Source: Nitrospirota bacterium
GTDB lineage: Bacteria; Nitrospirota; Thermodesulfovibrionia; Thermodesulfovibrionales; JdFR-86
Assembly: GCA_037386965.1 (NCBI GenBank)
Contig: JARRLN010000002.1
Coordinates: 11,443-75,442, forward strand
Direction of reading: 5' to 3'
Length of the DNA: 64,000 bases
The position numbers and the translations under genes were made by a program. Positions 22,770-42,201 of the stretch are shown in pieces. A model generated the notes under the pieces. It ran no database searches, was not told the DNA's origin, and saw nothing but the letters and a program-made list of their open reading frames with translations. The number at the start of each line of letters is the position of its first letter. Within the stretch, counting starts at the first letter, position 1.

Positions 22770-23206
22770 CCCTAGAGCAATTTAATAAATTATGTAGCCG
22801 AAGGCCTCCTTGTCGTAGCCGTTTGACCTGAGGCGGCTCGGCAGTGACTTCTTTGGAGGAACTGCCTATGGAGGGCGGCCGCCGTTGCATAAAGAAAGAG
22901 GTCTGCGAACGTTCCGGCCCGATAGGGCCGGTGCAGGGCGTTTCAAGAGGCTGTTCCACCCATTCGTCACTCACATAAGGCCGCCCGGACAGTAATAAGA
23001 CTCCTTGCCGCAGAATAATCCTCTCTTCCCCACTTTTGAACTAAGAGGGGAAGAGAGGATGGGTGAGTTGGGGAGATAGATAATTAAAAAAACCGGGGCC
23101 GGGGGCGGAGCGCCCCGTAATAACAATGCAACTCTTCTGACTCCCTAACCCACCTCTTCTCCCTCTCCCTTAAATCGGCCACAGGTCAAGTTAGATTGCT
23201 CTAGGG
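22770..23206. repeat. 437-bp AT-enriched segment bounded by perfect 12-bp inverted repeats CCCTAGAGCAAT / ATTGCTCTAGGG (MITE-like or structured-RNA locus)
   Basis: IR copies at 22770..22781 and 23195..23206. Internal hairpins at 22914..22931 (7 bp) and 23018..23060 (14 bp). No convincing ORF. Lies between convergent genes. Confidence 0.5.
23086..23117 (-). terminator. Intrinsic terminator downstream of the SRPBCC gene
   Basis: Minus strand reads CGGGGCGCTCCGCCCCCGGCCCCGG followed by TTTTTTT: a GC-rich hairpin plus U-tract, about 85 nt after the stop at 23201. Confidence 0.6.
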
Positions 23207-23641
23207 TGTTCCGGACTCCATCATCCGCTTGAGGTTTTTCAGGTCCTCTTTCATCTGCTCGCCGGTTACGACGTCAAGCACCGTGTCCTCCAGAAAAGAG
23301 TTGTACTTCCCCGGGGGTTTGTAGGAGAGCTCCACGGTCACTTCGGTGGCGCCCCCTTCCTTCTCCGCGAGGCTCAGCGCCCCCCTGTTTTGCACGCGGG
23401 AGCCCGGCAGCGAGCGCCACTCGATGACCTCGTTCTCCTCGTCCCGGACGATTTCCGACTCCCAGCCGAGGTCCCCCACGGGTGTCTTGATGGTCCAGCG
23501 GCTGCGCCCGCCCCCCAGGTCCTCGACGGAGTCCAGATGGTCGATAAAGCGGGGGAGGTTCTCGAAGTGCCGCCAGAACCCGTATATGTCGCCGGCCTTG
23601 CGTTTTATGGTGATGCTTTCCTTGACGTGTACTTCCGGCAT
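23201..23641 (-). CDS. SRPBCC-superfamily (polyketide cyclase/dehydrase-like) protein
   Basis: 146 aa. The pattern ...IYGFWRHFENLPRFIDHLDSVE...SRWTIKTPVG...WESEIV...IEWRS is typical of SRPBCC/CoxG-like ligand-binding proteins. Confidence 0.65.
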   Translation of the reverse strand: MPEVHVKESITIKRKAGDIYGFWRHFENLPRFIDHLDSVEDLGGGRSRWTIKTPVGDLGWESEIVRDEENEVIEWRSLPGSRVQNRGALSLAEKEGGATEVTVELSYKPPGKYNSFLEDTVLDVVTGEQMKEDLKNLKRMMESGTP

Positions 23642-23691: not shown

Positions 23692-25110
23692 CTAGGGGCC
23701 TCCCAGGCTCAACGCCTGGATAACCGCGATGAGGGAGCCAGGATAGACCCCGAACCACAGGAGGGCGAGGGCCAGGACGCCGAGGACCAGGCTCTCTCCC
23801 GCTCCGGCCAAAACCCGCTCCCCGGGGGCTGCCGGGGCATAGAGGGCAGCCACGATGCGCAGATAGTAGTACAGGCCGATGCCGCTGTTTACAAGGAGCG
23901 TCACTACCAGGGCCCAGTGGGCCGCGCCGACTCCGGCGGCAATGACATAGAACTTTCCGATGAATCCCGCCGTCAGGGGGATGCCCGCGAGGGAGAAAAG
24001 GACGAAGGTAAAAACACCGCCCAGCCACGGGCTCCGGCGGAAGAGCCCCCGGTACTCGTCGAGATGGCCCGTGCGCCGCTGTGCTTCGGAGAGGACCGTC
24101 ACCACGCCGAAGGCCCCGAGCATGGTCACCACGTAGGCGGTGATGTAAAACGTGACGGCCGTCGTCCGCATCTGGCCGCTTGCCAGGAAGGCCACCAGGA
24201 TATAGCCCATGTGGGCGATGGACGAGTACCCGAGAATGCGCCTGACGTTCTGCTGCCTGAGGGCCAGCAGATTGCCCACGAACATCGAAAGCACGGCGAT
24301 AACCGCCAGGACCGCAAAGAGGGGACCCGTCTCCGCAAAGCTCAGGCCCGAGAAATAGCGCACAAGAAGGGCGAACATCGCTCCCTTGGATATGGTGGCC
24401 ACGTAGCCCGCCACCGGGGCGGGGGCCCCCTCGAAGATGTCCGGCGTCCACATGTGAAAGGGGGCCACGCCCAGCTTGAACCCCACCCCGACGACCACCA
24501 TCCCCATGCCCGTCAGGGCCAGGGCCGACCCGGGGTGGGAGAGCCTCGAGGCCAGGGCGGCAAACTCCATGGTGCCCGCCTCCAGGTAAAGAAGGGCCAT
24601 CCCGAAAAGCAGAAAGGCCGACGAAACTCCCGCCAGGACGAGATACTTTACGCCGGCCTCTATGCCGGGCTCGTGCGCGCGCCGGTACCCGATGAGGGCG
24701 TAGAGCGAGACGCTCAGTATCTCCAGCCCGAGGAAGAAGGAGGCCAGGTGGGCCGCGGCCACCAGGACCATGGAGCCCAGGGAGGCCAAGAGAAGCAGTA
24801 TGTAGTACTCCTCGCGGATGCCGCCCCCCCTCTGGATGACGCCGTAGGACATTATGGCCACGGCCAGCGCGGAGACCAGGATGAGGGCGAGGTAGAAGAC
24901 CGCGTACGTGTCCAGGACAAGCAGGCTCGTCACCGGGTGCGGCAGGCCCGATAGTGAGCTCAGGGAGGCCGCGGAGAAGAAAAGCGCCGCCGCCGTGAGG
25001 CCGAAGGTCAGGTCGTAATGCCGCTTGACCGCCAGGGCGAGCATGACCAGGACCGGGGCGGCCCCCATGATGAGAAAGGGGATGAGGGGCAGAAGGTCAT
25101 TTGCTCTCAT
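23692..25110 (-). CDS. nuoN: NADH-quinone oxidoreductase subunit N
   Basis: 472 aa antiporter-like subunit and last gene of the nuo array. The start overlaps the nuoM stop. Confidence 0.9.
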   Translation of the reverse strand: MRANDLLPLIPFLIMGAAPVLVMLALAVKRHYDLTFGLTAAALFFSAASLSSLSGLPHPVTSLLVLDTYAVFYLALILVSALAVAIMSYGVIQRGGGIREEYYILLLLASLGSMVLVAAAHLASFFLGLEILSVSLYALIGYRRAHEPGIEAGVKYLVLAGVSSAFLLFGMALLYLEAGTMEFAALASRLSHPGSALALTGMGMVVVGVGFKLGVAPFHMWTPDIFEGAPAPVAGYVATISKGAMFALLVRYFSGLSFAETGPLFAVLAVIAVLSMFVGNLLALRQQNVRRILGYSSIAHMGYILVAFLASGQMRTTAVTFYITAYVVTMLGAFGVVTVLSEAQRRTGHLDEYRGLFRRSPWLGGVFTFVLFSLAGIPLTAGFIGKFYVIAAGVGAAHWALVVTLLVNSGIGLYYYLRIVAALYAPAAPGERVLAGAGESLVLGVLALALLWFGVYPGSLIAVIQALSLGGP

Positions 25111-26626
25111 GCATGCCCTCCATGGGCTCCGTCAGTGCCGCCTCCACCTGGGCGGCCTGCGACAGGCGGCTCAGGTTCTGGATGCCGTGCCGGGCGGTCC
25201 TGAGCACGGGCCCGGGATAGATGCCGATGGCGATGATGAGGGCAGCCATGACCGAGAGGGTGAGGACTTCCCGCACCCGGAGGTCGGGGAACTCAAGCCC
25301 CTCTCTCTTCCCGCCGAAAAAGGCCTGCTGCATGAACCAGAGGCCGTAGATGGCCGAGGCCACCAGCACTATGGCCGCGATGCCCGCCGCCCAGGGGTTC
25401 ACCTTGTATGCTCCCAGCAGAACCAGGAACTCCCCGACGAAATTCCCCATCCCGGGCAGCCCCACGGAGGCCAGGGCGAAGATCATGGCCATGCCCCCCA
25501 TGCGGGGTGCCGCCGACCAGAGGCCGCCCACGGCCGCCATCTCGCGGGAGCCCACCCGCTCCTGAAGCTCTCCGACCAGGACGAACAGCGCCCCGGTGCT
25601 TATGCCGTGGCTCACTATCTGCACCACCGCTCCCTCCAGGGCCCAGTTGTTCCAGATGCTGACGGCCAAGAGGACGAAGCCCATGTGGCTCACGCTCGTA
25701 TAGGCGACCAGCCGCTTGAGGTCGGTCTGGGAGAAGGCCATCACCGCCCCGTAGAGGATGCCCGCCACGGCCAGCACGACGCCCCCCCAGGCAAGGGCCG
25801 CCGCGGCTTCGGGGAAGAGGGGCACGGCGAAACGCAAAAGCCCGTACGCCCCGGTCTTCAACAGGAGCCCCGCCAAGATGACGCTCCCGGCCGTGGGGGC
25901 CTCGGTATGGGCGTCGGGCAGCCAGGTGTGGAAGAAGAACGCGGGCAGCTTTACGAGGAAGGCCGCCAGGAAACCGCCCATCAGCCAGAGCGAGGCCGTC
26001 CGGCCCAGGGAGGCCCGCAGAAGCTCCACGTAGTCGAAGGTATGTTCTCCCGTGGCCCGCCAATGGATGAAGTACAGCCCCAGGATGGCCGCGAGCATGA
26101 AAAGCCCGCTGAGCTGCGTGAAGATGAAGAACTTGACGGCGGCGTACTGGCGGTTCTCGTGTCCCCATATGGAGATGACGAAATACAGAGGCACCAGCAT
26201 GAGCTCCCAGAAGAAATAGAAAAGGAACAGGTCCAGGGCCAGGAAAACCCCGACAATCCCGGCCAGGCACCAGAGCAGGTTGAAGTAGAAAAACCCCACC
26301 CTCTCGGTTATCTCCGTCCACGAGGAGGCCACCGCCACCAGGCCCAGAAAAGCGGTCAGCGCGACGAGGATGACGCTCAGCCCGTCGGCGGCAAGGTGAA
26401 AGCCGATGCCCAGCTGGGGAATCCACCGCACCTGAAGCGAGGCCAGCCAGCCCCCTGCCTGGGCACCCTGTGCCGCGGCGGCCCCGAAAAGGGGCAGCAC
26501 CAGGGCGAAGTCGGCAAGAAGGGCGAAAAGCGCGACGTACCGGGGCGTGCCCTTCCAGAAACGGCCCGCCAGGGCCGCCCCGACGCCCCCCAAAAGAGGG
26601 ATGACCACGAGCAGGACGAGTATCAT
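25097..26626 (-). CDS. nuoM: NADH-quinone oxidoreductase subunit M
   Basis: 509 aa antiporter-like subunit (WLPDAHTEAPTAGSVILAG). The start overlaps the nuoL stop (ATGA). Confidence 0.9.
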   Translation of the reverse strand: MILVLLVVIPLLGGVGAALAGRFWKGTPRYVALFALLADFALVLPLFGAAAAQGAQAGGWLASLQVRWIPQLGIGFHLAADGLSVILVALTAFLGLVAVASSWTEITERVGFFYFNLLWCLAGIVGVFLALDLFLFYFFWELMLVPLYFVISIWGHENRQYAAVKFFIFTQLSGLFMLAAILGLYFIHWRATGEHTFDYVELLRASLGRTASLWLMGGFLAAFLVKLPAFFFHTWLPDAHTEAPTAGSVILAGLLLKTGAYGLLRFAVPLFPEAAAALAWGGVVLAVAGILYGAVMAFSQTDLKRLVAYTSVSHMGFVLLAVSIWNNWALEGAVVQIVSHGISTGALFVLVGELQERVGSREMAAVGGLWSAAPRMGGMAMIFALASVGLPGMGNFVGEFLVLLGAYKVNPWAAGIAAIVLVASAIYGLWFMQQAFFGGKREGLEFPDLRVREVLTLSVMAALIIAIGIYPGPVLRTARHGIQNLSRLSQAAQVEAALTEPMEGMHESK

Positions 26627-28491
26627 GCGAACACCATCATCATTCCCAGGACGAGGATGGCCCCGAAGGCCATCCCGGTGACGTACCAGCGCACCTTGCC
26701 AGACTGGGTGGCGCTGAGCCAGCCGTGCACGACGCCGTTGTACCAGGCCGCCCCCGTATAGAAGAGGTCCACGAAATCGTCCTTGTTGACGCGGGCCACA
26801 AAGAGAAACGGCCGCACGAGGAGCGCATCATAGAGGCGGTCGAAGCCCCATCCCCCGTGCAGGAGCGCCCGGAGCCCCCCGCCCGGCCCCGTCCGGGCCA
26901 GCGAGCGCACGGAGTCCGGCCTGAGCACGTAGAAATAAAAGGCAAGGTATATCCCCAGGAGCGAGGTGGCTGAGGTGACGAACTCTATCAGGATACGGGG
27001 GACCGGGAGGGTCCGCTCCTGGAGGGCCGGGAGGACACCGGCCGCTCCGGTCAGGGCGTGGGGCACGTTTATCCATCCTCCCGCGATGGACAATGTCGCC
27101 AGCGCCAGAAGGGGGACGCTCATGCGGAGGCCGGGCCGGTACACCACCCTGCCCCTGGCCTGGCCGAAGAAGACCAGAAAAACCATCCGGAAAGAATAAA
27201 CGGACGTTATCAGGGCCCCGGCGAGACCCGCCCCCCAGAGCCAAGGTCCGCCGTCCGTGGAAAAGAGGGCATCGCTTATGATGAGGTCCTTGCTGTAAAA
27301 CCCGGCGGTAATCAGGGGGAGCGCCGAGAGCGAGGACGCCCCTACGAGAAACGTCCAGAAGGCCAGGGGCAGTTTTCTCCTGAGCCCTCCCATGCGGAAC
27401 ATGTCCCTTTCGTGCTTCAGGGCATGGATGACCACGCCCGCGCTCAGGAACAGGAGGGCCTTGAAGAACGCATGGGTCATGAAATGGAATATGGCTGCGG
27501 CCCACGCTCCCACGCCGAGGGCCAGGAACATATAGCCTATCTGGCTCATCGTGGAGTAGGCCAGGGCACGCTTGATGTCGCGCTGGGCCAGGGCGCTCAT
27601 GCCCGCAAGCAACAGGGTCAGGGCTCCGATGACCGCAACGGCCAGCTGCACGGAGGGGGCCAGGGTGAAGATGACGTGGGTGCGGGCTATCAGGTAGACG
27701 CCGGCCGTCACCATGGTGGCGGCGTGGATGAGGGCGCTCACCGGCGTGGGGCCCGCCATGGCGTCGGGAAGCCAAGTCTGAAGGGGCAGCTGGGCCGACT
27801 TCCCCAGGGCGCCGAGCAGGAGGAGCCAGGCCGCCAGCGAGGCCGCGCCGGAGCCCGTCGCCCATTGTTTCTGGGCGACACCCATCAGTTCCTGTATCGT
27901 CGTGGTGCCCAGCGCGTGAAAGATGAGGAAAATCCCCACCGCCAGTGCGGCGTCCCCGACGCGCGTCACGATGAAGGCCTTCTGGGCGGCCCACCCGTTG
28001 GCGGGGTCCTTGTACCAATAGCCTATGAGCAGGTAGCTGCAAAGCCCCACGCCCTCCCAGCCCAGGTAAAGGAAGGTGAGGTTGTCGGCCAGGACCAGGA
28101 TGAGCATGGAAGCCACGAAGAGGTCCATGTAGGCGAAGAAGCGGCTGTAATCCTCCTCCTCCATGTACTCCGCCGAATAGACGAGGATGAGGAAGCCCAC
28201 CCAGGAGACCACCAGGGTCATGACCACGGAGAGGCCATCCAGGTAGAGCGCCACCCGGGGGGAGAAGCCCCCCACGTCAATCCACTGCCAGAGGACCAGG
28301 GTGAAACCCTTCGCCCCGGGGCCCAGGCCGGCGAACCCGAGGCCGCACGCCGCGGCGGCAATGGCGGCAAGGCCGACCGAACCCGCGCCCACCGCCGAGA
28401 CCGCCCGGCGGGGCATCAGGGGGCCCCAGACGGCCAGAAGGGCAAAGCCCGCCAGGGGAAGCGCCGGCACTATCCAGAGAAAGTCGAGCAC
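26623..28491 (-). CDS. nuoL: NADH-quinone oxidoreductase subunit L
   Basis: 622 aa (WLPDAMAGPTPVSALIHAATMVTAG) with a C-terminal lateral-helix region. GTG start. Confidence 0.9.
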   Translation of the reverse strand: MLDFLWIVPALPLAGFALLAVWGPLMPRRAVSAVGAGSVGLAAIAAAACGLGFAGLGPGAKGFTLVLWQWIDVGGFSPRVALYLDGLSVVMTLVVSWVGFLILVYSAEYMEEEDYSRFFAYMDLFVASMLILVLADNLTFLYLGWEGVGLCSYLLIGYWYKDPANGWAAQKAFIVTRVGDAALAVGIFLIFHALGTTTIQELMGVAQKQWATGSGAASLAAWLLLLGALGKSAQLPLQTWLPDAMAGPTPVSALIHAATMVTAGVYLIARTHVIFTLAPSVQLAVAVIGALTLLLAGMSALAQRDIKRALAYSTMSQIGYMFLALGVGAWAAAIFHFMTHAFFKALLFLSAGVVIHALKHERDMFRMGGLRRKLPLAFWTFLVGASSLSALPLITAGFYSKDLIISDALFSTDGGPWLWGAGLAGALITSVYSFRMVFLVFFGQARGRVVYRPGLRMSVPLLALATLSIAGGWINVPHALTGAAGVLPALQERTLPVPRILIEFVTSATSLLGIYLAFYFYVLRPDSVRSLARTGPGGGLRALLHGGWGFDRLYDALLVRPFLFVARVNKDDFVDLFYTGAAWYNGVVHGWLSATQSGKVRWYVTGMAFGAILVLGMMMVFA

Positions 28492-28495: not shown

Positions 28496-28804
28496 TCACC
28501 CTTTCATCCTGTTGACCTGGTCCATGTCCAGCGTCCTGTACCGGTGCGAGATGCCCAGGACGAAGGCCAGGCCCACCGACACTTCCGCCGCCGCCAAGGC
28601 CAGGATAAAGATGTACATGACCTGCCCGTCGGGCTGGCCCCAGCGAAACCCCGCCGCCACGAAGGCCAGGCCCGAGGCGTTGAGCATGACCTCTATGGAA
28701 AGGAGGATGAAGATGACCTCCCTTCTGAGGAGCACGCCGAAGAGGCCGATGATAAAGAGGACGCCGGCCAGGACCATCGCATGCTCGAACAATACGGCGG
28801 TCAT
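28496..28804 (-). CDS. nuoK: NADH-quinone oxidoreductase subunit K
   Basis: 102 aa, 3 TM, LSIEVMLNASGLAF and AAAEVSVGLA motifs. ATG 28804 inside the longer ORF 28496..29044. Confidence 0.9.
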   Translation of the reverse strand: MTAVLFEHAMVLAGVLFIIGLFGVLLRREVIFILLSIEVMLNASGLAFVAAGFRWGQPDGQVMYIFILALAAAEVSVGLAFVLGISHRYRTLDMDQVNRMKG

Positions 28805-29319
28805 CCCGGCCCTCCCCTCTTCTCCGGGACGTCCTCCCTCCGTCCCAGGTGATAGGCCCCGACAAGCCCGGCCAGAAGAAGCATCGAGCCCAGCTCCACG
28901 CCCAGCACGTACGGCCCGTAAAGGGCTATGCCTACCGCCTTGGGGAGGACTTCTTCCGCCCCGCCGGCAAGCCCGGTGGGGTGAAAAAGGATATACAGAA
29001 GCTCCCCGCCCAGAACGAGGGAAAGAAACGCCGGCCCTGCCCACATCTCCGGGACCATCCAGCGGGCGCCCCTCCGGGGAGGGACCTCGCCCAGGTTCAG
29101 AAGCATGATGACAAAGACGAAAAAGACCATGATGGCCCCGGCATAGATGATGACCTCCAAGGCGGCCACGAAGGGAGCGCCCAGTATGAAGAAAATGACG
29201 GCCACCGCAAGAAGCGAGACGATGAGGTACAAAAGCGCGTGGATGGGGTTTCGCCGGGTCACGGCAAGCATGGTGGCAAGGACGGCCACCACCGAGGTTA
29301 TGTAAAAAACGACTTCCAT
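28801..29319 (-). CDS. nuoJ: NADH-quinone oxidoreductase subunit J
   Basis: MEVVFYITSVVAVLATMLAVTRRNPIHALLYLI... ATG 29319 inside ORF 28801..29415. The stop overlaps the nuoK start. Confidence 0.85.
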   Translation of the reverse strand: MEVVFYITSVVAVLATMLAVTRRNPIHALLYLIVSLLAVAVIFFILGAPFVAALEVIIYAGAIMVFFVFVIMLLNLGEVPPRRGARWMVPEMWAGPAFLSLVLGGELLYILFHPTGLAGGAEEVLPKAVGIALYGPYVLGVELGSMLLLAGLVGAYHLGRREDVPEKRGGPG

Positions 29320-29338: not shown

Positions 29339-29854
29339 TCAGGGCATGAGGTCCCTGACGTCCACGGGAGGCCGCTCGTCCACGGCCTCTCCCTTGTCTT
29401 TGCCCTTGACGGCAAGCCCCGCCACCTTGTAAAAGTTATAGCCGTGGTACTTGCCCTCGCCGTCTATGAGGAGGTCTTCCTTTTCGTAGACCAGGTTCTC
29501 CCGCCTGTACTCGCCGAACTCGGCGTCGGGGGTGAGCTGTATCGCGTAGGTCGGACAGGCCTCCTCGCAGAAACCGCAGAGGATGCAGCGGGAGAAGTTG
29601 ATGCGGAAAAAGGCGGGGTAGCGCCGGCCGTACTCGTCCTCGGCGGCCTGAAGCGCGATGCAGTCCACCGGGCAGGCCACGGCGCAGAGGTAGCAGGCCA
29701 CGCAGCGCTCCTCGCCCTCTGGGTCCCGCGAGAGGATGATGCGGCCCCGCCACCGCGGAGGCATATAGAGCTTCTGTTCCGGATACTGGACGGTCACCCG
29801 CCTCCGGGCGAGGTGGCGAAAAACGTTCCAGAGGGTTTTCAGTATGCTCAGCAC
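29339..29854 (-). CDS. nuoI: NADH-quinone oxidoreductase subunit I (2x[4Fe-4S])
   Basis: [12 protein letters not shown] and [15 protein letters not shown] 29854 lies 7 nt after the nuoH stop. The ORF-track ATG at 29902 would overlap nuoH by 41 nt. Confidence 0.85.
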
Positions 29855-29861: not shown

Positions 29862-30815
29862 TCACCCCATCGCGGCAAGCAGTATGCCGCCGGTGACCAC
29901 AAGGTTCAGAAGCGACAGGGGAAGCAACACCTTCCACCCGTATGCCATGAGCTGGTCGTATCGCGGCCGCGGCAGCGACGCCCTGAGCAGGATGATGAAG
30001 CAGACGACCGCGAACGTCTTCAGGGCGAACCACACCAGGGGCGGCAGATACGGCCCCAACCAGCCGCCGAAGAAAAGGGTGACCGTGAGCGCCGAGACGA
30101 GGGTCACCCCGATGTACTCGCCCACGAAGAAAAGGCCGAACTTCATCCCGGAGTACTCGGCGTGAAAACCCGCCACCAGCTCGCTCTCGGCCTCCGGCAG
30201 GTCGAAGGGCAGGCGGCGGGTCTCGGCCGTCCCGGCTATCAGGAAGACCACCAGCCCCAGAAACTGGGGGATGCAGAACCACAGGTCCTTCTGCGCTTCG
30301 ACGATGTCCGAGAGCCTGAAAGAGCCCGCCAGCATGACCACCCCCATGAGGGAGATGCCCATGAAGACTTCGTAGCTCACCATCTGCGCCGAGGCCCTCA
30401 ACCCTCCCAGGAGGGAGTACTTGCTGTTGGAGGACCATCCGGCGAAGGCTATGCTGTAGACCGCCAGGGAGGACAGGCCGAGGAAATAGAGGAGCCCCAC
30501 ATTGAGGTCGATGACCTCCAGCCCCGGGGCGAAGGGGATGACGGCAAAGGACAGAAGAGCGCCCAGCACGACGATGGTGGGCGCGAAGACGAAGAGGGCC
30601 TTATCCGCGAAGGGCGGTATCCAGTCCTCCTTGGCCAGGACCTTCAGCATGTCGGCCAGGACCTGCAGGATGCCGAAAGGCCCCACGCGGTTGGGACCGT
30701 ACCTGTCCTGCCAGAGCCCCAGAAGCCTGCGCTCAAGCCAGATGAGTCCCGGGGCCACGACCATCACCGCGACGAAGACAAAAAGGACCTTCAAGACGGG
30801 TATCAGAATTTCCAT
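29862..30815 (-). CDS. nuoH: NADH-quinone oxidoreductase subunit H
   Basis: [10 protein letters not shown]...[24 protein letters not shown] (NuoH signature). ATG 30815 inside ORF 29862..31265. Confidence 0.9.
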
Positions 30816-30817: not shown

Positions 30818-33523
30818 TCACCCCTTCCGGACCTCCCCCCAGAGGGGGCTTCTCATCCACCGGAGCCCCGGAAGGCCCGACGGCAGGCCGGCCACCCCGC
30901 GGGGAAGCTCGGGCTTGAGCACGAGGGGAAGCCTGAGGGTCGCCTCTCCCAAAACGACGAGAAGCTCCTCGCCTCCGGAGGCGCCGAGCCCCTGGGCGTC
31001 CTCCTCTCCCAGGGCTACGTAAGGCTTGGGCGCAAGCGCGGCGATGCCCGGAGCCCGCGCGCTCAGCTCCTCGGAGCCAAACACGTGATGAAGCGGACAG
31101 AGGAGCCACCGCCCCTCCCGCCGGGCGAAGGGCTCGGGGATGTCCCCATAGTAGGCGCCCTCCGCCGCCTCCGCGGCACGGAGAAGAGGGACGCCCGGGC
31201 TTCCGCCCCTGAGGACGCCCCCGACCTGTTTTTGATACTTGTCCACGGCCTGCACGGAGTTCCATCCGGGCGCCCAGAGGCGCGGGATGAGGGAAGGGGG
31301 CGGCGTCCCCGGGTATCCCTCCATGGAGAAGTCCAGCGGAGAGTCCGGGTCCTCGGGGGGCCTGGGCTCATGGAGGGTCCTGTCGGCGTGCATCGCCGTC
31401 CGGCCGCTGTAGCGGTGGGGCTGGCGGGGAACCCTGAGCCCCCGCACCCTGAAGCCCGCGGAAGGGGCGGCCCGGGCGACGCCCCGCATCCGGGGCAGCT
31501 TCTCCTCGATGCTCCTGAGGAGGGCATCCAGGGTCTCCCACCGCGCGGCCTCGGGCCAGCGGGCGGCCAGCATCATCTGCCGGAGCCACCGCCAGCTCTC
31601 CCGCACCCCCTCCGGGGGCGGGAAGACCTCGAAGAACCTCTGGGCCCGGCCCTCGCTGTTTACCAGCGTGCCGCTCCCTTCGGCGAACGTGGCGGCGGGG
31701 AGCACCAGGTCGGCCTTCTCCGCGGTGGGGCTTGCCAGGGAGTCAAGGACCACGATGCGGCAGGCATCCAGAAACTCCTCGGCCCGCGCGGCTTCCATCC
31801 TGGCGTAAAGGTCGGCCTCCAGGATGACGGCCGCCTCCACCCCTCCGCCCCTTACCGTCTCATACGCCTTCCCGAGCCCTTTTTCGCTCATCAGGGCGAG
31901 GCCGATGCTGTTACAGTCGAAAGCCGAGAGGTAAAGCCTGCACTCCTTTCCGGCCTCCGCCAAGGCGCGGGCCACGTTGGCCGCAGCGTGGACCGCCGCC
32001 GTCCCCGCGCCCGCGCCCGATATCACAAGGGGCCTTTTGGCCCGCTTGAGGTCGCCCGCTATGTCCTCGGCCAGGCTCCTCACGCCCTTCTGGAGGGCGG
32101 AGACCCCGGGGGCGCCGCCGGCCAGCGCATGGGCCACGGCGAAGCCCAGCCTGGCGATGTCCCCGGGCGAGGCCCGGTAGGTGCGGCTGGCGATGTCCTC
32201 TATCCGCGTGGCTGCGGGCGTGGCGATACTGAGGGGGTTTTGCTCCTCCCTCTGGGCGAAGGTCCGCAAGGCCGTGTCTTCCCAGCGGGGAATGCCGTAG
32301 GAAAGGGCCAGCTCGATGGGCCCCTGGCGAACGGACTGCCTCAGGGCAAGGGCCATCCGGGGGGCGGTGGCCGAGATGTCCTCGCCCAGGACGAAAACGG
32401 CATCCGAGGACTCCGCTTCCTGGAGCGTAGGCGCCGGGGCCGGGCAGGTGCGGCGTACGGCGAGGATGGCCAAGAGGGCCTGAAGCTCGCTCTCCGGGAC
32501 CCCGGCATAAAAGTTCTCCGGGCCCACCAGCTCCCGAAGGAGGAAGTTCGCCTCCACCGAAGCCCTCGGCGAGCCCACCCCCACCACCCGGGCCCCAAAG
32601 TGCAGGACGTCGGCCATCTGCCTCAGCGCCGTCTCCGGGTCCACCGGCACGCGCCCCCATCCGCTCTCCCTGAGCAGGGGGCGGCCGATGCGCTCCGGGC
32701 TGTTTACGAACTCGTAGCCGAAGCGGCCCCGGTCGCAGAGGAAATAGCCGTTGACGACGCTGTTGTAGCGGTTGCGTATCACCCGCAGGGATTCGTAGCG
32801 CTCCCCGGCGATGGTGTTGCACCCGTGGGCGCAGTGCACGCAGACGGACGGGGCGCTCTGAAGGTCCCATTTCCGCGTGTAGTGCCCCTTGAGGGTCTTG
32901 TCGGTGAAAACCCCCGTGGGGCAGACCTCGGCCAGGTTGCCGCTGAATTCGCTCTCCAGGACGCCGTCCTCGTACCGCCCGAAGTACACGTGGTCGTGGG
33001 AGCCCAGGACGTCCAGGTCCCGCCCCCCCGCGTATCCCTTGTAGAAGCGCACGCAGCGGTAACACTGAATGCAGCGGTTCATCTCGTGGTTGACGAGGGG
33101 GCCCAGGTACTGGTTGCGATACGTCCGCTTCGTGAACCTGTACCGCCTGTACACGTGCCCCGTCATCTCGGTCATGTCCTGCAGGTGGCACTCCCCGCCT
33201 TCGTCGCAGACAGGGCAGTCGTGGGGATGGTTTATCATCAGCCATTCGATGACCTTGGCGCGGAAAGCCCGGGCCTCAAGGTCGTCCACGGAAAGCCGCG
33301 TGCCGTCCTCCGCCAGGGTCATGCAGGACATGGCGAGCTCTCCCTTCGCGTCCTCCTCGTCCTTGAAGACCTTGACCGCGCAGAGCCTGCACGCGCCCAC
33401 GGAGTCAAGGGCGGGGTGCCAGCAGAAGTACGGGATGTCGAACCCCAGCGTGAGGCAGGCCTCAAGCAGGTTCTGCCCGTCTTCCACCTCGTACGGCACG
33501 TTATCCACGTAAATGGTGGCCAT
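30818..33523 (-). CDS. nuoG: NADH-quinone oxidoreductase subunit G (long, about 900-aa form)
   Basis: N-terminal 2Fe-2S/4Fe-4S Cys patterns ([34 protein letters not shown]) followed by a molybdopterin-like domain. Confidence 0.9.
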
Positions 33524-33524: not shown

Positions 33525-34826
33525 CTAGAGCCCCGCCCTTCCGTACGTGCAGCGTTTCTCCCGGATGTGCCTCATGAAATCGTCCTCGAAGTACCTGAGC
33601 GCGCTTCTCAGGGGCTCCATGGCCCCCGGGGCCAGAAAACAGAACGTGCGGCCCGACCCCAGGTCGCGGCAGTGCTCCCTCAGGATGTCCATGTCGCCGG
33701 GCTCCCCCTCGCCCCTCTCGATGGCCTCCAGGATGCGGGCTATCCACGGGAGGCCCTCCCGGCAGGGGGTGCACCAGCCGCAGGACTCCCGGCTGAAGAA
33801 GTCCATGAGGCTCCACGTGGTACCTATTGGGCACGTCCTGTCGTCCAGGACGACCACCGTCCCGGTCCCCAGCCTGCTTCCGCTTTCCGGCATGCTGTCG
33901 AAATCCATCTTCGTATCCAGATGCCCCTTGAGGACGAACTCCGTGGAGGCCCCACCCGGGATGGCCGCCCTGAACCGGTATCCCTCGCGCATGCCTCCGG
34001 CGTGCTCCTCCAGAAGCTCCCGCATCGTGGTGCCCATGGGAAGCTCCCAGGCACCCGGCCTTTGCACCCGGCCGGCCATCGTGTAGAGCTTGGTCCCTCC
34101 CTCCTTGGTCCGGCTCAGGCCCTTGTACCACGCGGCTCCGTTCTTTACGATGTGGGGGACGTTGCATATCGTCTCGACGTTGTTGTTCACGGTGGACTTT
34201 CCCCAAAGGCCGCAGACGGAGAGGTGCGGAGGTTTGGCCCGGGGGAAGGGGCGCCTGCCCTCCAGGGCCGTCATCATCGTGGCCTCCTCCCCGCACATGT
34301 AGCGTCCGGCGCTTGAGTGCACGTGCAGGCGGAGGCTGAAGTCCGTGCCCATGATGTTTTCGCCCAGGAAATTGCCGTCGTAAGCCTCCGCTATGGCCCG
34401 TTCCAGGCGCTTCCGCGCGGCGTGATACGCCCACCGGAGAAAAATGACCGCAGTGCTGGCCTCCAGGGCGTAGGAGGCTATGGCCATGCCCTCTATCAGC
34501 AGGTGGGGGTTGCCCTCCATCAAGACCCTGTCCTTGAAGGAGCCGGGCTCCATCTCGTCGGCGTTACAGGTGTAGTACTTGGGATGGCGGGCCTTCTCAC
34601 CCATGGGCATGAAGCTCCATTTCTTCCCGGTGGGGAATCCCGCCCCTCCCCGCCCCCGGAGGCCGGAGGCCAGGACTTCCTTGGTGACCTCCCCGGGCTT
34701 CATCTCCTTGAGGGCCCTCCTCAGGCCCTCGTAGCCTCCGGCTTTCCGGTACTCCCCGAGGGTCGGCGCGGCGCCGTCGGCCCTGAAGGCCCCGGTCAAC
34801 GGTTTTCTCTCCGTGCCCGCCGTCAC
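33525..34826 (-). CDS. nuoF: NADH-quinone oxidoreductase subunit F (NADH/FMN-binding)
   Basis: GLRGRGGAGFPTGKKW and ESCGWCTPCREG motifs. GTG 34826 overlaps the nuoE stop (GTGA). The ORF-track extension to 35051 is unsupported. Confidence 0.9.
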   Translation of the reverse strand: MTAGTERKPLTGAFRADGAAPTLGEYRKAGGYEGLRRALKEMKPGEVTKEVLASGLRGRGGAGFPTGKKWSFMPMGEKARHPKYYTCNADEMEPGSFKDRVLMEGNPHLLIEGMAIASYALEASTAVIFLRWAYHAARKRLERAIAEAYDGNFLGENIMGTDFSLRLHVHSSAGRYMCGEEATMMTALEGRRPFPRAKPPHLSVCGLWGKSTVNNNVETICNVPHIVKNGAAWYKGLSRTKEGGTKLYTMAGRVQRPGAWELPMGTTMRELLEEHAGGMREGYRFRAAIPGGASTEFVLKGHLDTKMDFDSMPESGSRLGTGTVVVLDDRTCPIGTTWSLMDFFSRESCGWCTPCREGLPWIARILEAIERGEGEPGDMDILREHCRDLGSGRTFCFLAPGAMEPLRSALRYFEDDFMRHIREKRCTYGRAGL

Positions 34827-35284
34827 TTGTAGTCCTCCAGGATGCTGTCTATCTTCTCCGGGGTCAGGTCTCCGTAAAGCTCCTCGTCCACCATCATGGC
34901 GGGGGCCACGCCGCAGGCCCCTATGCAGCAGACGGGAAGCAGGGTAAACTGCCCGTCCTCCGTCGTCTCCCCGAAGCCCACGCCCAGCCGCGTGCTCAGG
35001 TGCTCGAAAACCTCCCTGTAGCCCATTATCCAGCAGCAGAAGGAGTCGCACAGCAGAATGACGTGCTTGCCCACCGGCCTTCTGAAGATGAGGCTGTAGA
35101 AGGTGGCGATGCTGTCCACCTCGGCGGGCGACATCCCCAACATCTCGGCCACCTCGGGGAGCTCGCCGGAGATCCAGCCCCGGTGTCTCTGGACGACCTT
35201 CAGGGCGTCGGAGACGGCCTCTCTCTTGTGCACGACGTCCTTGAGGCTCTTTCTTATCTCTTCCTTTTCTTCTTCCGTGAGCAT
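34823..35284 (-). CDS. nuoE: NADH-quinone oxidoreductase subunit E (2Fe-2S)
   Basis: 153 aa; CDSFCCW...CIGACGVAPAMMV thioredoxin-like 2Fe-2S pattern. Confidence 0.9.
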   Translation of the reverse strand: MLTEEEKEEIRKSLKDVVHKREAVSDALKVVQRHRGWISGELPEVAEMLGMSPAEVDSIATFYSLIFRRPVGKHVILLCDSFCCWIMGYREVFEHLSTRLGVGFGETTEDGQFTLLPVCCIGACGVAPAMMVDEELYGDLTPEKIDSILEDYK

Positions 35285-35309: not shown

Positions 35310-37082
35310 TCATTTGTCTATGTCGGCCAGGATGAAGTCCACGCTTCCCAGGATGGCCAGGAGGTCCTGTATCATGAGCCCCCGGCTTATCGCCGGGACC
35401 ATCTGCATATGGGCAAAGGACGGGGTGCGGATGTGCACCCGGTACGGCATGGTGTCTCCGTCGCTTATGAGGTAGTAGCCGTTGGAGCCCTTGCTGGCCT
35501 CGACCGCCTGGAAGGCCTCCCCCGCCGGCACCACGGGCCCCCAGCTGACGTTCAGAAAGTGGTCGATGAGGGTCTCGATATGAACCATGGTCTTTTCCTT
35601 GAGGGGCGGCGTCGAGGCGGGATGCTCCGCCTTGTACGGGCCGGAGGGCATGTTCATGAGGCACTGCTGCACGATTCTCAGGCTCTGGCGCATCTCCTGC
35701 ACCCGGACCACGGCGCGGTCGTAACTGTCCCCTCCCTCGGCCGTGGGGATATCGAACTCGAACCAGTCGTAGCCGGAGTACGGCCTCTTCTTCCTGAAGT
35801 CCCACTCCACGCCCGTCGCCCGGAGGCCCGGACCCGTCACGCCCCACTGGACCGCCTCCTCGGCGGCATAGCGGCCGATGCCCTTGGTACGGGCCTTCAG
35901 GATGCTGTTCTGCATGACGATGCGGTCGTACTCCCTGAGCCGCCGGGGCAGGTAGCGGATAAGGTCCCTGACCAGCTTCTCCCACCCCCGGGGAAGGTCC
36001 TCGGCGACCCCGCCGATGCGGAACCAGCCCGGATGCATCCGCCCCCCGGTGACCGCCTCGACGATACGGAAGATGACCTCCCTGTCGTTGAAGGTATAAA
36101 AGACCGGGGACATGGCCCCCAGGTCCTGGGCGAAGGTGCCGTACCAGACCAGGTGGCTTGCCAGGCGGAAAAGCTCCGAGACGAGGACGCGGATGACCTT
36201 GGCCCTCTCGGGCACCTCGATACCGGCGAGCTTCTCCACGGCAAGGACGTAGGGCAGGTTGTTGAGCACGCCGCCCAGGTAGTCGATGCGGTCGGTATAG
36301 GGGATGTAGGTATGCCAGGACTGCCTCTCCCCCATCTTCTCGGCCCCCCGGTGGTGAAATCCGATATCCGGCACGGCGTTGACGATGAACTCCCCGTCAA
36401 GCTCCAGAATGATGCGCAGGAGGCCGTGGGTGCCGGGGTGCTGGGGACCGAGGTTCAGGAAAAGATACTCCGTGTCCTCCCGCCTCCTCCTGAGCCCCCA
36501 GTCCTCGGGCCGGAACTCAAGCTTCCGGAACTCCATGGCCTCCTTCTCCTCCGGAAGCTCGTAGGGCTCCATCTCGGTGGCGCGGGCGGGGTGGTCCTTC
36601 CTGAGGGGATGGCCCTTCCACCCCGCCGGCATGAGGATGCGCCTCAAATCGGGGTGGCCGTCGAAGGATATGCCGAACATGTCCCACACTTCGCGCTCGT
36701 ACCAGTCGGCGTTGGGCCAGAGGCCGACGGCGGTCCCGACGGAGAGGCGGTCCTCGCCGAGGGGCACCTTTACCCTGATGTCCTCGTTCCTCTCCAGGGA
36801 CAGGAGGTGGTAAAGAACGGTGAAATCATCCCGGGGGAGGCCGTGCGCCTCCGAGCGCACCCGCTCGTCCACCGCCGTTATGTCGTAGAGCATCCGATAG
36901 GGCTCCTTTGCCTCGCTCTTGAGGAAGCGCAGGACGTCGAGCGCCTTGTGCCGGGACACCCAGACGGTGGGCACGCCGTCGGCGGCCTGCTCGGCCGTTA
37001 TGGCCTCCGGCCCGAAGGACGCCGTGAGCTCCCGGACGACCCTTTTCTCCTCTTTGACTGCCTGCGCTCTTTCCTGTCCCAT
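35310..37082 (-). CDS. nuoCD: Fused NADH-quinone oxidoreductase subunits C and D
   Basis: 590 aa. The N-terminal 30-kDa (NuoC) region is followed by the NuoD region ([15 protein letters not shown] ... ILADIDK C-terminus). Confidence 0.9.
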
Positions 37083-37097
37083 GCGTTCAGGCGCTCG

Positions 37098-37739
37098 CTA
37101 CACGTGCTCCGGCGGGCGGAGCCTGCCGGTCTTCCGCCGCTCCGCCCTCTTGAGGTCCCGCATGGAGGGCATCTCGGGCCTGTGCACCCCTTGGGAGCCC
37201 AGGGCCCAGGTGAGGGGCCTGCCCTCCTTTCGCACGAGCTTCTGAAGCAGGAGAAGCCCCTCCATGAAGGCCACCGGGCTGGGCGGGCAGCCCGGCACAT
37301 AGACGTCCACGGGAAGGAACTGGTCCACCCCCTGCACCACGCTGTAGATGTCGTACATGCCCCCGGAGTTCGCACAGGAGCCCATGGAGATGACCCAGCG
37401 GGGCTCCATCATCTCCTCATGGAGCCTCTTGATGACGGGGGCCACCTTCTTGAAGACCGTGCCCGCCACTACCATCACGTCGGCCTCCCTCGGGGTTCCC
37501 CGGATGACCTCGGCCCCGAAGCGCGCGATGTCGTACACGCTGGTGATGCTGGTGGCCATTTCCACATAGCAGCAGGAGAGGCCGAAGTTGAAGGGCCACA
37601 GGGAATTGCTCCGGCCCCAGGCGATGAGGTCCTTGAGCCTGGCCAGAAGGATGCTCCGGCTTACCGCCTCCGCAAGGGACGCCCGGGGCTGCCAGGGCCG
37701 GCTTATCTTCCAGGAGCCGTATTCACGCTCTTCCTTCAT
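37098..37739 (-). CDS. nuoB: NADH-quinone oxidoreductase subunit B (N2 cluster)
   Basis: [17 protein letters not shown] and VPGCPP motifs. Confidence 0.9.
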
Positions 37740-38124
37740 CCTGCCTCCCCGTGACCTGCGGGCGCGGCCAGTCCAGCGCCCCCACCCGCCAGAGGTACGC
37801 CAGCGCGGCCAGAAGGACCGCTATGAATATCACCATCTCGATGTAGCCGGCCCAGCCCGCCTCCCGCACGGCCACGGACCACGAAAAGATGAAGACCGAC
37901 TCCAGGTCGAAGACGACGAAGAACATGGCCACCAGATAGTACTGGATGTCGAAGCGGAGCCTGCTGGTCCCTATGGGGGCCATGCCCGACTCGTAGGGCT
38001 CCTCGGTGGCCCTCTCCGCCCGCCGCTGCCCCAGAAGGTACGACACGACGAGCATCACGGCCACCGTGACCACGACAAGCCCCAGATAAACCGCCAGCGG
38101 CCAGTAGATGGTGTCCCCCTTCAT
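37723..38124 (-). CDS. nuoA: NADH-quinone oxidoreductase subunit A
   Basis: [16 protein letters not shown]..., [19 protein letters not shown] 38124 lies 1 nt after the cytochrome b-c stop. Confidence 0.85.
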
Positions 38125-38125
38125 C

Positions 38126-40360
38126 TCAGGACCCCTCCTCCGTCTTTCCCCCGGGGCTTCCCGCCAGCCGCCTCTTGCTCCAGAGGCCACCCAGGCCGAG
38201 GAGCATGAGGGCATAGAGCGCCGCCACCACCGCGAAGAACGTGCGGGGGGAGACCCCCGGGTCTATGAGCTTGCCCCTGTCCACCCCGTTGAGCTTCAAA
38301 ACGTAGGTTATGATGTTTGCTATCTCCTGCTGGGTCAGGGACTTGCTGTCCCCGAAATTAGGCATGTGCAGGGCAGGGCCCGGACCCGGGGGGACCGAGC
38401 CGTGCTGGATGAACCTGTCGATGTTCTTGGCGAAGGTCAGCGGGTCGTCGCTGTACAAGGCCCGGTCGATGGGATTGAGAGTCGGCACGTGGCCGCTTTG
38501 CGAGCCGGGGTTGAACGCTCCCTTCGTCCCCTCGGGGCCGTGGCAGCGCTGGCACTGCTCCTTGAAGAGAACCCCTCCGTGCCCGGCGCTTCCCACGACG
38601 TAGGCGGCCGGGCCCACCTCCCGGGGGTTGGCCTTCCCCTTGGGGCTGGGCAGGGGAGGACCCTCTTCTGCCGGTGCGGGCGCGGCCTCCGTCTTTTCCG
38701 GCGCCTTGGGCCTCGATCTTTCCTCTTTGGGCGAAGTTTTGGCCTGGGCTTTCGGTTGCTCCTTGGACGAGGCCTCGGCCTGGGCCTTGGCTACGGGTGG
38801 CCCGGCCGCGGTGACGCCGTTTAGCTTCATGACGTAGGCGATGACGTCGGCTATCTGCCGGGCTTTGAGGGTCTCGCTGAACGAGGGCATGGATATCTCG
38901 GGGTTCGGCCCCTTGGGGACGGAGCCGTGCTCGACGAAACGGTCCACGTTCCTGGCGAACTCGGCGGGGTCGCTGCTGTACAGGCTGCGGGCAATGGGGT
39001 TGAGGTCAGGGACATGCCCCATGCTGGAGCCCGGGTCTGGATGTCCGTGCTTTCCCTCCGCGCCATGGCAGGCTGCGCATATCTCTGCGAAGAGGCTCTT
39101 GCCCCGTTCCGGGTCTCCCGTGAGGGTCACGGCCTTGCCCACCGCCCTCGGATTTACATTACCCTCGGGCGCCGGCAGCTTGGGGTCTCCCCCCGCAGGC
39201 GCCTGGGCGGCCTCGCCCAGGCCGGCAAGGAGCAGGCCCGCGAGGTGCTCTCCCACGGGGTCGCCGCCGCCCTGCCGGGCCTGTGTCTGCCCTCCCGCTG
39301 GCGCCCTGCCGTACCCCTTGCTCAGGTAACCCTTTATGCTCAGGGCCAGGATGACGGCCCCGACGATAATGGCAAACGATATGGCCACCGGCCGCCTGAA
39401 AGGGTTTTTCTCGGGGCTGCGGTCGACGAAGGGCAACAGGACGAGAATGGCCACCAGGGCCCCGGGCACGGCCACCGCGCCCACAGGCTCCCAGGGGCCC
39501 TGGAAGTACTTCAGGGCCTCGTAGAGAAAGAGAAAGTTCCATTCCGGCTTGGGCACGTAGGAGGTGTCCAGCCTGTCGGCGGGGCCGCTGTAGTCCGGAG
39601 GGAGGAATACCACGAGAGCAATCAGAATAAAGAATATGAAGGAAGCGAAAAGCGCGTCCTTCAAGGCCTGGTCCGGCCAGAACGGGCCGGTGGTCCTTCT
39701 TTTCTCTTCCTTCCAGGGCCCCACGCTCCCCCCGCGGCGCATGGCCACGATGTGAAAGCCGAAAAGGAGCGTGAGCAGAAGGGGAAACACGGCCACGTGC
39801 AGGCCGAAGAGGCGGCTCAGGGCGAGCTGCCCCATGGTCTCCCCTCCCCGGAGAAAAACCCTGAGGTAATTGCCCACCACCGGCACCACGCCGGCGATGT
39901 TCGTGCCCACCTGGCCCGCCCAGTAGCCCGCCTGGTCCCAGTGCAGGGGAGCACCGGTAAAACTGAGGGCCATGAGCGTAAGGAACAGCGCTACGCCGAA
40001 AAGCCAGGTAAGCTCTCGCGGCCTCTTGTACGCCCCCCAGAGAAAGGCCCTGGCCATGTGCAGGCCGACCACCATGATGATGAGCTGGGCTCCCCAGTAG
40101 TGCAGGCCGTGGATGAGCCAGCCGAAGGGCACCTCTCGCCTGAGGTAGGTGAGGCTGTTGTATGCCTCGTGCTCCGTGGGAACGTAGTAGAAAAGCTGCA
40201 TGACCCCCGTAAGGGCCTGAAGCGAAAAGAGGACCAGGACCGCGCTGCCGAAGCTGTAAGAGAAACTGGCGCCGCCGGGTATCTCCTCGTCCAGAACAAT
40301 GTGGGCCACGCTCGAGAAAGGCCATCTCTGAGCCAGCCAATTCTTTATCGACGTCCGCAT
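38126..40360 (-). CDS. Cytochrome b (b6 plus subunit-IV-type, full length) fused to a tandem dihaem cytochrome c domain and a C-terminal TM anchor
   Basis: Helix B has His...13 residues...His; helix D has LH-x14-H (b6-type spacing). Qo-loop motif PEWNF. A low-complexity A/P/K/E linker follows. CAACH and CQRCH sit in two clearly duplicated about 100-aa domains. ATG 40360 inside ORF 38126..40624. Confidence 0.8.
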   Translation of the reverse strand: MRTSIKNWLAQRWPFSSVAHIVLDEEIPGGASFSYSFGSAVLVLFSLQALTGVMQLFYYVPTEHEAYNSLTYLRREVPFGWLIHGLHYWGAQLIIMVVGLHMARAFLWGAYKRPRELTWLFGVALFLTLMALSFTGAPLHWDQAGYWAGQVGTNIAGVVPVVGNYLRVFLRGGETMGQLALSRLFGLHVAVFPLLLTLLFGFHIVAMRRGGSVGPWKEEKRRTTGPFWPDQALKDALFASFIFFILIALVVFLPPDYSGPADRLDTSYVPKPEWNFLFLYEALKYFQGPWEPVGAVAVPGALVAILVLLPFVDRSPEKNPFRRPVAISFAIIVGAVILALSIKGYLSKGYGRAPAGGQTQARQGGGDPVGEHLAGLLLAGLGEAAQAPAGGDPKLPAPEGNVNPRAVGKAVTLTGDPERGKSLFAEICAACHGAEGKHGHPDPGSSMGHVPDLNPIARSLYSSDPAEFARNVDRFVEHGSVPKGPNPEISMPSFSETLKARQIADVIAYVMKLNGVTAAGPPVAKAQAEASSKEQPKAQAKTSPKEERSRPKAPEKTEAAPAPAEEGPPLPSPKGKANPREVGPAAYVVGSAGHGGVLFKEQCQRCHGPEGTKGAFNPGSQSGHVPTLNPIDRALYSDDPLTFAKNIDRFIQHGSVPPGPGPALHMPNFGDSKSLTQQEIANIITYVLKLNGVDRGKLIDPGVSPRTFFAVVAALYALMLLGLGGLWSKRRLAGSPGGKTEEGS

Positions 40361-40365
40361 AATTC

Positions 40366-40890
40366 CTATACGGGCACCTTCTTCGAAATGCCTACCTTGT
40401 AGCGGACCCACTCGACCAGGAGAGTATGATTCTCGACCTTGTGGGGCATGGTGTCCAGGGGTCGCGGCGCCGGGCCGGCCAGCACGCGGCCGTCCTTGGC
40501 ATAAACGCTGCCGTGGCAGGGGCACTCGAAGTGTCCGGTCTTGGGGTCCCACTTGTAGTAGCACCCCATGTGGGGACAGATGGGCGAGAACGTGGTCACG
40601 CCCTCGGGATGCTTTATCACCCACACCCTGTGCTCGACCACCTCATGGTAGTACGCTTTCTTCTCCCGCACGTCGAAGTGCAGGTCCATTGGCTGGCCCA
40701 CGGGCAGGTTTTGAAGGTCGGTCACCTTCTCGAAGGGGTTCTTCTCGGCGGGCGGAGAGGTAAAAAGGTTCTTGACGAAAGGGACCCCCAGGAGAAGGCC
40801 GTTCAGGGCCCCCAGGGCTCCGAGGGTCCACTTGAGAAACCGCCTCCGCCCTTTCGGCACGTCCCGTTCTTCCGTCCTTGCAGGCTCCAT
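40366..40890 (-). CDS. Rieske 2Fe-2S subunit of a cytochrome bc-type complex (Tat signal)
   Basis: RRRFLKWTLGALGAL twin-arginine signal; CPHMGC ... CPCHGS Rieske boxes. ATG 40890 inside ORF 40366..40980. Confidence 0.85.
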   Translation of the reverse strand: MEPARTEERDVPKGRRRFLKWTLGALGALNGLLLGVPFVKNLFTSPPAEKNPFEKVTDLQNLPVGQPMDLHFDVREKKAYYHEVVEHRVWVIKHPEGVTTFSPICPHMGCYYKWDPKTGHFECPCHGSVYAKDGRVLAGPAPRPLDTMPHKVENHTLLVEWVRYKVGISKKVPV

Positions 40891-41031
40891 TTTCTCCGTT
40901 CCTCTTTGATATCTGCGAAAAGCCGCTTTTCGAAGGTAACGCTTGATTAGGATGGTAGAGCATTTTCCCCTACCCGTCAACGGGAAAAGAAGAAAAAAGA
41001 ACGGGACGGCCCGAAACCGTTGAAAGGGAAA

Positions 41032-42163: not shown

Positions 42164-42193
42164 TTGCCCTCGCACAAGCCTTCGATTTATAAT
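42164..42193 (+). promoter_or_regulatory. Candidate sigma70 promoter (TTGCCC-N18-TATAAT)
   Basis: Perfect TATAAT at 42188..42193, followed by GGAGGG (42205) and GTG 42217. Supports the shorter start for the downstream gene. Confidence 0.4.
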
Positions 42194-42201
42194 AATTTTA
42201 G

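Follow-up and report, generated by a model that had tools for sequence, protein, structure and literature searches.

Linkage of Rieske/cytochrome b genes to the complex I operon in a clade of Nitrospirota

In model organisms, the genes of complex III (pet, fbc or qcr) are located away from the nuo genes of complex I. To our knowledge, bacteria normally keep the genes of their quinone-reducing and quinol-oxidising complexes apart. The textbook case of reverse electron flow is the petI operon of Acidithiobacillus ferrooxidans, for whose bc1 complex a reverse mode, towards complex I, has been proposed. This operon has links to genes for a cytochrome c and a short-chain dehydrogenase but none to nuo. 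Fusions of cytochrome b with cytochrome c are known from Nitrospira, Acidobacteria, Planctomycetes and Firmicutes as the ‘PEWY-cyt c / PDWY-cyt c’ clades (Kao and Hunte 2014, PMC4122944). In the Rieske/cytb-Nar clusters of haloarchaea, the Rieske/cytochrome b genes adjoin those of a partner in the same electron transport chain (Baymann et al. 2012, PMC3509893). The locus described here lies in a Nitrospirota metagenome-assembled genome (GCA_037386965.1, contig JARRLN010000002.1, positions 11,443 to 75,442) and joins a Rieske gene and a cytochrome b-c fusion gene to a nuo array. The whole stretch of 64,000 nucleotides (nt) that was analysed is referred to as the window, and its guanine-cytosine (GC) content is approximately 64%.

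Gene order and its conservation

The order on the minus strand is the Rieske gene (40366..40890), the cytochrome b-c fusion gene (cytbc, 38126..40360), nuoA and the rest of nuo through nuoN, the 13-gene nuo array directly continuing the Rieske-cytbc pair. The successive gaps from Rieske to nuoN are 5, 1, −17, 15, 25, −4, 1, 2, 7, 19, −4, 4, −4 and −14 nt, with start codons picked from the translations. The sole large gap is the 141 nt upstream of the Rieske gene. All genes share one strand and no gap could fit a terminator plus a promoter, the distances being 1 nt at the cytbc/nuoA junction and −17 to +25 nt from nuoA on. The initial annotation had placed the Rieske and cytbc genes directly upstream of nuoA on one strand, with tiny or negative gaps from 40890 down to 23692. 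Its description of the gene arrangement is confirmed throughout, as coordinates and Pfam identities hold and no gap exceeds 25 nt. A GenBank protein from a second assembly (GCA_037386945.1, contig JARRLP010000005.1) has 100% identity to the cytochrome b-c fusion.

The junction between the two modules occupies 38122..38141 on the minus strand and reads tccTGAgATGaag. The cytbc stop codon TGA (38128-38126) is followed by one base (38125) and then by the nuoA ATG (38124-38122), giving TGAgATG and bearing out the single-nucleotide spacing that had been claimed. A Shine-Dalgarno-like sequence, GGAGGAGGGG (38141-38132), lies within the 3′ end of cytbc, where it forms a ribosome-binding site seven bases 5′ of the nuoA ATG. 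No promoter-like site was found near the junction on the minus strand in a scan of approximately 20 kilobases (kb) for sigma-70-type sites, and the fold of the junction is unremarkable, with nothing beyond shuffled controls. An internal terminator ahead of nuoA had been raised as a possibility, for which the 1-nt gap leaves no room. Across such a gap with no terminator, transcription of the upstream genes would hardly stop short of nuoA, whether or not there is also an internal promoter.

Conservation of the linkage was surveyed with an alignment of 32 cytbc homologs, from which the GTDB collection was scanned at one genome per species. This gave 80 loci with flanks of up to 10 kb, in which the genes of the array were located by tblastn; loci with enough flank to be informative were regarded as testable, and linkage required the same strand. 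Among the 35 testable loci labelled Nitrospirota, Thermodesulfovibrionales or Dissulfurispiraceae, 30 are linked: the pair lies upstream of nuoA in 20 and directly after nuoN in 10, with five unlinked. The remaining 33 testable loci carry the labels of other phyla (Bacteroidota, Ignavibacteria, Kryptoniota, Zixibacteria, Aminicenantes, Desulfobacterota-type, Chloroflexota and Gemmatimonadota) or none. The linkage is absent from 31 of these, one unlabelled ‘bacterium’ having the pair upstream of nuoA and one locus labelled Chloroflexota having it after nuoN. The homolog of Candidatus Sulfobium also has no linkage to nuo.

In a neighbour-joining tree of the cytochrome b part, all linked loci fall in one Nitrospirota clade. 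The basal groups have the nuoN-Rieske order, and the loci with the Rieske-nuoA order make up a large derived clade. The downstream order, in ten species, has gaps of 65-243 nt and in one case 848 nt. For the upstream order, an 8-kb insert separates the modules in one of the 20 cases. In the 13 species without an intervening gene (the window included), the gap at the junction is −4 to +9 nt in nine and 40-86 nt in four, the start codons for this count having been chosen heuristically. A Thermodesulfovibrionales metagenome-assembled genome (GCA_054682015.1, locus L084) has a cytochrome approximately 55% identical to that of the window, the same 13-gene nuo array and an identical TGAgATG. The initial annotation had left room for the adjacency to be unique to one assembly, and this is refuted by its recurrence in approximately 30 species. 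As these are independent species-level assemblies, the adjacency is beyond chance. The linkage of complex III to complex I genes is a genuine trait of the lineage, composed of ordinary enzymes and not a new kind of system.

It is most improbable that the two gene sets merely abut, either as independent units with a nuo promoter inside the cytochrome gene or through mis-assembly of a metagenome bin. Tight packing of genes is usual in high-GC genomes, the promoter scan was limited to sigma-70-type sites, and the junction gaps of 40-86 nt in some relatives would suit separate units. Against this stands the read-through expected at the junction of the window. An assembly artefact is ruled out, since the same organisation is present in the GenBank record and in approximately 30 other independently assembled species.

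The encoded enzymes

All 14 core subunits NuoA-N of complex I are encoded, with C and D fused, and the enzyme is a canonical NADH-oxidising one. Its genes all lie on the minus strand. The first is nuoA (37723..38124; PF00507, Oxidored_q4), which overlaps nuoB (37098..37739; PF01058) by 17 nt. The fused nuoCD (35310..37082) encodes PF00329 and PF00346 in a single protein. It is followed by nuoE (34823..35284; PF01257), nuoF (33525..34826; PF01512 and PF10589), whose GTG start overlaps the nuoE stop (GTGA), and nuoG (30818..33523; PF22117, PF10588 and PF00384). The next four genes, nuoH (29862..30815), nuoI (29339..29854, with a probable GTG start), nuoJ (28801..29319) and nuoK (28496..28804), were assigned by position and by matches to related loci with the Pfam families; the L084 counterpart of nuoH has PF00146.

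The array closes with the three genes of the large membrane subunits. NuoL (26623..28491) is a full-length protein of 622 amino acids that scores 686 bits with the NCBIfam equivalog NF005141, against a cut-off of 556. NuoM (25097..26626, 509 amino acids) and NuoN (23692..25110, 472 amino acids) match the subfamily models TIGR01972 (534 bits, cut-off 264) and TIGR01770 (376 bits, cut-off 333). Each of the three is present once and is best matched by its own model, and the enzyme is not a ‘2M’ or MrpD-substituted variant. Unlike the 11-subunit NDH/Fpo-like enzymes, it has the N-module of NuoE, NuoF with its flavin mononucleotide/NADH site, and NuoG. It is the presence of these three subunits that indicates a complex I handling NADH.

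The partner of complex I is a member of the Rieske/cytochrome b superfamily in both of its proteins, the quinol-oxidising (Qo) site motif being the sole non-canonical feature. The Rieske [2Fe-2S] subunit (PF00355) is a protein of 174 amino acids with a twin-arginine motif, RRRFLK, in its translation. Both boxes of the cluster-binding pattern CxH...CxxH are present, as CPHMGC and CPCHGSVY. The bc1/b6f Rieske models of NCBIfam also match, with scores below their cut-offs.

The fusion protein of 744 amino acids consists of an unsplit cytochrome b with a b6-like N-terminal half, two class I cytochrome c domains and a C-terminal membrane helix. Pfam assigns it Cytochrome_B, Cytochrom_B_C and two Cytochrom_C domains. 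The ligands of haems bL and bH, on helices B and D, are His87/His101 and His188/His203, with 13- and 14-residue spacing, and all four are invariant in the 32 homologs. The 14-residue spacing in helix D is presumably of the b6 type. The best structural relatives by sequence are cytochromes b6, with which residues 4-215 align end to end from the third residue of b6; an N-terminal cysteine for haem ci is absent from the protein.

The C-terminal third (38126-39150, minus strand) carries the c-type cytochrome, the third redox subunit of the complex, with CxxCH at residues 428 and 603. The two domains are 55% identical to each other and are thus read as a tandem duplication. A hydrophobic segment at residues 703-721 ends the protein. 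CxxCH occurs once in 59 homologous proteins, twice in 36, three times in 24 and four times in one, which shows that the family readily gains or loses haem c domains.

The Qo-site motif is PEWN (residues 272-275; 39536-39547, minus strand), in which the P, E and W of the near-universal PEWY are kept and the tyrosine is replaced by asparagine. Of the 108 homologs whose motif could be located, 101 have the form P[ED]WN. No PEWN/PDWN variant was found in the main text of the survey of Qo motifs (PMC4122944). The cytochrome b-c fusions with this non-canonical Qo motif are thereby flagged as a large family that is as yet uncharacterised.

The GenBank record gives the fusion 727 amino acids, with a start 17 codons later than 40360, and starts the Rieske protein 10 codons later than its conserved N-terminus indicates. 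These later starts widen the apparent gap between the two genes from 5 to 56 nt. Residues W8, R12, W13 and P14 of the fusion are invariant in the 32 homologs, and for this reason, together with the alignment to b6 from residue 4, the start at 40360 in the initial annotation is preferred to the GenBank call.

The predicted operon and its electron flow

An unrelated gene, for a YtnP-like metallo-beta-lactamase (41032-41883), lies upstream of the Rieske gene across the 141-nt gap. Just past it, a weak terminator-like hairpin with a T-rich tail was detected by the scan (41006..41020, minus strand; −5.2 kcal/mol). The region 40891..41031 had been singled out for a promoter search, and it does contain a promoter-like TTGACG-17-TACCAT (40952..40980, minus strand) with 9 of 12 consensus matches, the candidate start of the transcription unit. 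From the rate in shuffled sequence (1.9 sites per 19.9 kb on both strands), approximately 0.007 such sites would be expected by chance on the minus strand of the gap. A ribosome-binding site, AGGAACGGAG, precedes the Rieske ATG in the same gap.

At the other end, a gene for an SRPBCC/polyketide-cyclase-like protein (23201..23641, minus strand; PF03364 and PF10604) begins 50 nt past nuoN and is possibly the last gene of the unit. It is followed by a GC-rich hairpin with U7 (23086..23117, minus strand; −13 kcal/mol), a candidate intrinsic terminator missed by the simple scan. The hydrogenase and SRPBCC genes converge, and between them is a strong 14-bp inverted repeat (23017..23063; −33 kcal/mol, z = −4.3), which together with the hairpin is probably a bidirectional terminator region. 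Terminator-like matches over approximately 20 kb are at chance level (17 against 14.9 expected). An Rfam scan of 22500-42300, leader RNA included, gave chance-level matches only. The metallo-beta-lactamase gene was not found beside the cluster in related loci; nor was the SRPBCC gene, although the flanks of these loci mostly end too early to tell.

The locus is probably one operon of approximately 17.8 kb and 15-16 respiratory genes, the likeliest role of which is the forward segment from NADH through quinone to cytochrome c. The gene identities, the gaps, the junction sequence and the conserved linkage are direct observations; co-transcription of Rieske-cytbc with nuo (with good support from the sequence), translational coupling at cytbc/nuoA and the direction of electron flow are inferred. 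Transcription would start at the promoter-like site 5′ of the Rieske gene, read through the 1-nt junction and end at the hairpins past the SRPBCC gene. Translation of nuoA would initiate from the Shine-Dalgarno sequence inside the end of cytbc, as in translational coupling. The predicted products are a Rieske/cytochrome b complex of three cofactor modules, with duplicated c-type haem domains and a membrane anchor, and a complete NADH-oxidising complex I. The enzyme reducing quinone with NADH and the one oxidising quinol to reduce cytochrome c would thus be made under common regulation. The forward segment may feed haem-copper oxidases, such as the cbb3 enzyme encoded 27 kb away. The gene organisation argues for co-expression of the quinone reducer and the quinol oxidiser; the direction of flow does not follow from it.

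Several points weigh against this reading. Tight coupling is not obligatory, given the 40-86-nt gaps in four species, the inserted genes in others and the reverse order in ten. There may be an additional internal promoter in the 3′ end of cytbc. The promoter in the 141-nt gap matches at just 9 of 12 positions, and the hairpins at 41006-41020 and 23086-23117 fold no better than shuffles. Since either enzyme could in principle work in both directions, the sequence does not reveal which way electrons flow. With PEWN as its motif, the Qo site may have unusual kinetics or an unusual direction.

The genes found between the modules in relatives bear on the direction of flow. A NAD-dependent 6-phosphogluconate dehydrogenase gene, gnd_rel (TIGR00872, 390 bits against a cut-off of 297), stands alone between cytbc and nuoA in nine loci (L001, L003, L004, L005, L007, L035, L038, L040 and L050). 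It follows cytbc in L006, where the contig ends before nuoA, and it opens the larger insert of L020. The gene is within 10 kb of the cluster in 21 loci and is not found in the window. Locus L020, labelled Nitrospira sp., has the order Rieske-cytbc-gnd-SCO1-COX1-COX3-COX2(cyt c)-CtaB-HtrA-nuoA on one strand (9484-21967). Its insert is a haem-copper oxidase operon of the caa3 type, with a COX2-cytochrome c fusion and the haem O synthase CtaB, and complexes III, IV and I therefore form a single co-directional array. The unlinked Sulfobium copy is flanked by glucoamylase and glucose-6-phosphate dehydrogenase genes.

In the window, a cbb3-type oxidase cluster is found on the minus strand at 8318-14366. 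It contains ccoN (9655-10983), a FixO/dihaem ccoO-P fusion (8318-9658), a heavy-metal P-type ATPase and a DsbD_2 cytochrome biogenesis protein. The gnd_rel inserts, the L020 oxidase genes, the cbb3 cluster and the Sulfobium flanks favour a forward chain, apparently aerobic or microaerobic, and a tie between the cluster and NADH-producing oxidation of sugars or storage compounds. On the plus strand, a GAF-domain protein gene and then a four-gene NiFe hydrogenase (17773-22724; 4Fe-4S, NAD-binding/FeS, small and large subunits) converge on the end of nuo. We take this four-gene layout to be that of the cytoplasmic NAD(P)-linked group 3 hydrogenases.

A further group of genes at 48464-53449 (minus strand) encodes a small multihaem cytochrome c, a 4Fe-4S protein, an NrfD-type membrane protein, a large multihaem cytochrome c and a cytochrome b561. 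This is a putative second quinone-interacting module. It is adjoined by a two-component system at 45853-48361.

Reverse electron transport in a lithoautotroph is a rather unlikely alternative to the forward segment. Here, downhill flux through the Rieske/cytochrome b complex to an oxidase would build the proton-motive force with which complex I drives electrons from quinol to NAD+ for CO2 fixation. A reversed complex I has been proposed for many Nitrospirota lithoautotrophs (PMC9040806, PMC3578206), and such a branched chain would suit stoichiometric co-expression. The multihaem cytochrome/NrfD/FeS cluster and other periplasmic cytochromes of the window could supply the quinone or cytochrome c pool, and the PEWN motif permits atypical behaviour of the quinol site. 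However, no oxidase of a high-potential donor (nitrite oxidoreductase, Cyc2 or similar) is seen in the 64 kb, and the canonical 14-subunit complex I with its single NuoM differs from the modified types linked to reverse flow (PMC9040806). The inserts of the relatives, an NADH-producing dehydrogenase and a haem-copper oxidase operon, fit NADH oxidation, and the neighbouring NiFe hydrogenase has an NAD-binding subunit and so could reduce NAD(P)+ from H2 directly. The initial annotation had proposed a single transcription unit of complex III and complex I with a possible role in reverse transport. The predicted transcription unit is supported by the common strand, the 1-nt gap, the internal Shine-Dalgarno sequence and the conserved junction. 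The reverse role is rather unlikely and not supported, since nothing in the 64 kb requires it and the context points forward.

Another alternative is that the linkage reflects a physical complex I-complex III supercomplex, in which co-translation from a single mRNA would aid joint assembly and the connection to an oxidase would run through the fused dihaem cytochrome c, as it does through actinobacterial QcrC in III2IV2. This reading is attractive but very doubtful. The presence of the linkage in both gene orders across approximately 30 species argues for selection on proximity over one particular promoter, and junctions of the translational-coupling type are common. Moreover, the c-type cytochrome is fused and membrane-anchored, so that a soluble carrier would be unnecessary, and in L020 a single co-directional array holds complexes III, IV and I. 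Yet no extra subunit or extension was identified as a possible interface, co-regulation alone explains the linkage, and gnd_rel or oxidase genes can be inserted between the modules with the arrangement kept. A bolder version is doubtful as well: complexes III and I, and in one species complex IV, would form one expression unit due to a dedicated NADH-to-oxidase supercomplex, with the anchored dihaem cytochrome c as the wire and the clade-specific PEWN motif tuned for channelled or reversible quinone turnover.

Significance and comparison with known systems

The predicted operon requires no new biochemistry, as both enzymes are textbook respiratory complexes. The conserved gene order is a solid observation of moderate interest and its functional meaning is predicted. 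Kept through rearrangements, the linkage is a genomic marker of the Nitrospirota clade and a natural test case of co-regulation only against co-assembly into supercomplexes. Its importance would grow only if complexes I and III proved to form one physical unit or the reverse mode proved to be obligate. A full-text literature search found no description of a nuo-Rieske/cytochrome b linkage, an absence that is no proof of its being undescribed, and PMC4122944 does not mention a nuo linkage of the cytochrome b-c fusions. The components are known; the novelty, for which we could not find a description, is the lineage-wide merging of two operons, often with translational-coupling junctions.

The fusion protein shares with the PEWY-cyt c / PDWY-cyt c clades an unsplit cytochrome b and a C-terminal class I cytochrome c. 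It differs in the asparagine that its family has as the fourth residue of the motif, and the number of c domains in the family is mostly 1-3. The actinobacterial qcrCAB system, with its dihaem QcrC and III2IV2 assembly, similarly has two class I c-type haem domains that replace a soluble carrier. There, however, the dihaem module is a separate subunit, whereas in the window it is fused to a cytochrome b with a b6-like N-terminal half and the genes are linked to nuo, not to cta. The similarity of the fusion protein to the QcrB and QcrC models is weak, all scores being far below the actinobacterial cut-offs.

In the haloarchaeal Rieske/cytb-Nar clusters, the partner is an acceptor, nitrate reductase; in the window it is the quinone-reducing donor, complex I. 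The comparison with petI of A. ferrooxidans differs in another respect, as no iron-oxidation genes are seen in the 64-kb window. The closest likeness on the complex I side is to nuoA-N of Escherichia coli and nqo1-14 of Thermus thermophilus. The subunits and their order (A, B, C/D, E-N) are the same, the NuoEFG module is present, and the fusion of NuoC with NuoD is shared with E. coli. The difference is at the start of the operon, which in the window begins not with nuoA but with two complex III genes, joined to it across gaps of 5 and 1 nt.

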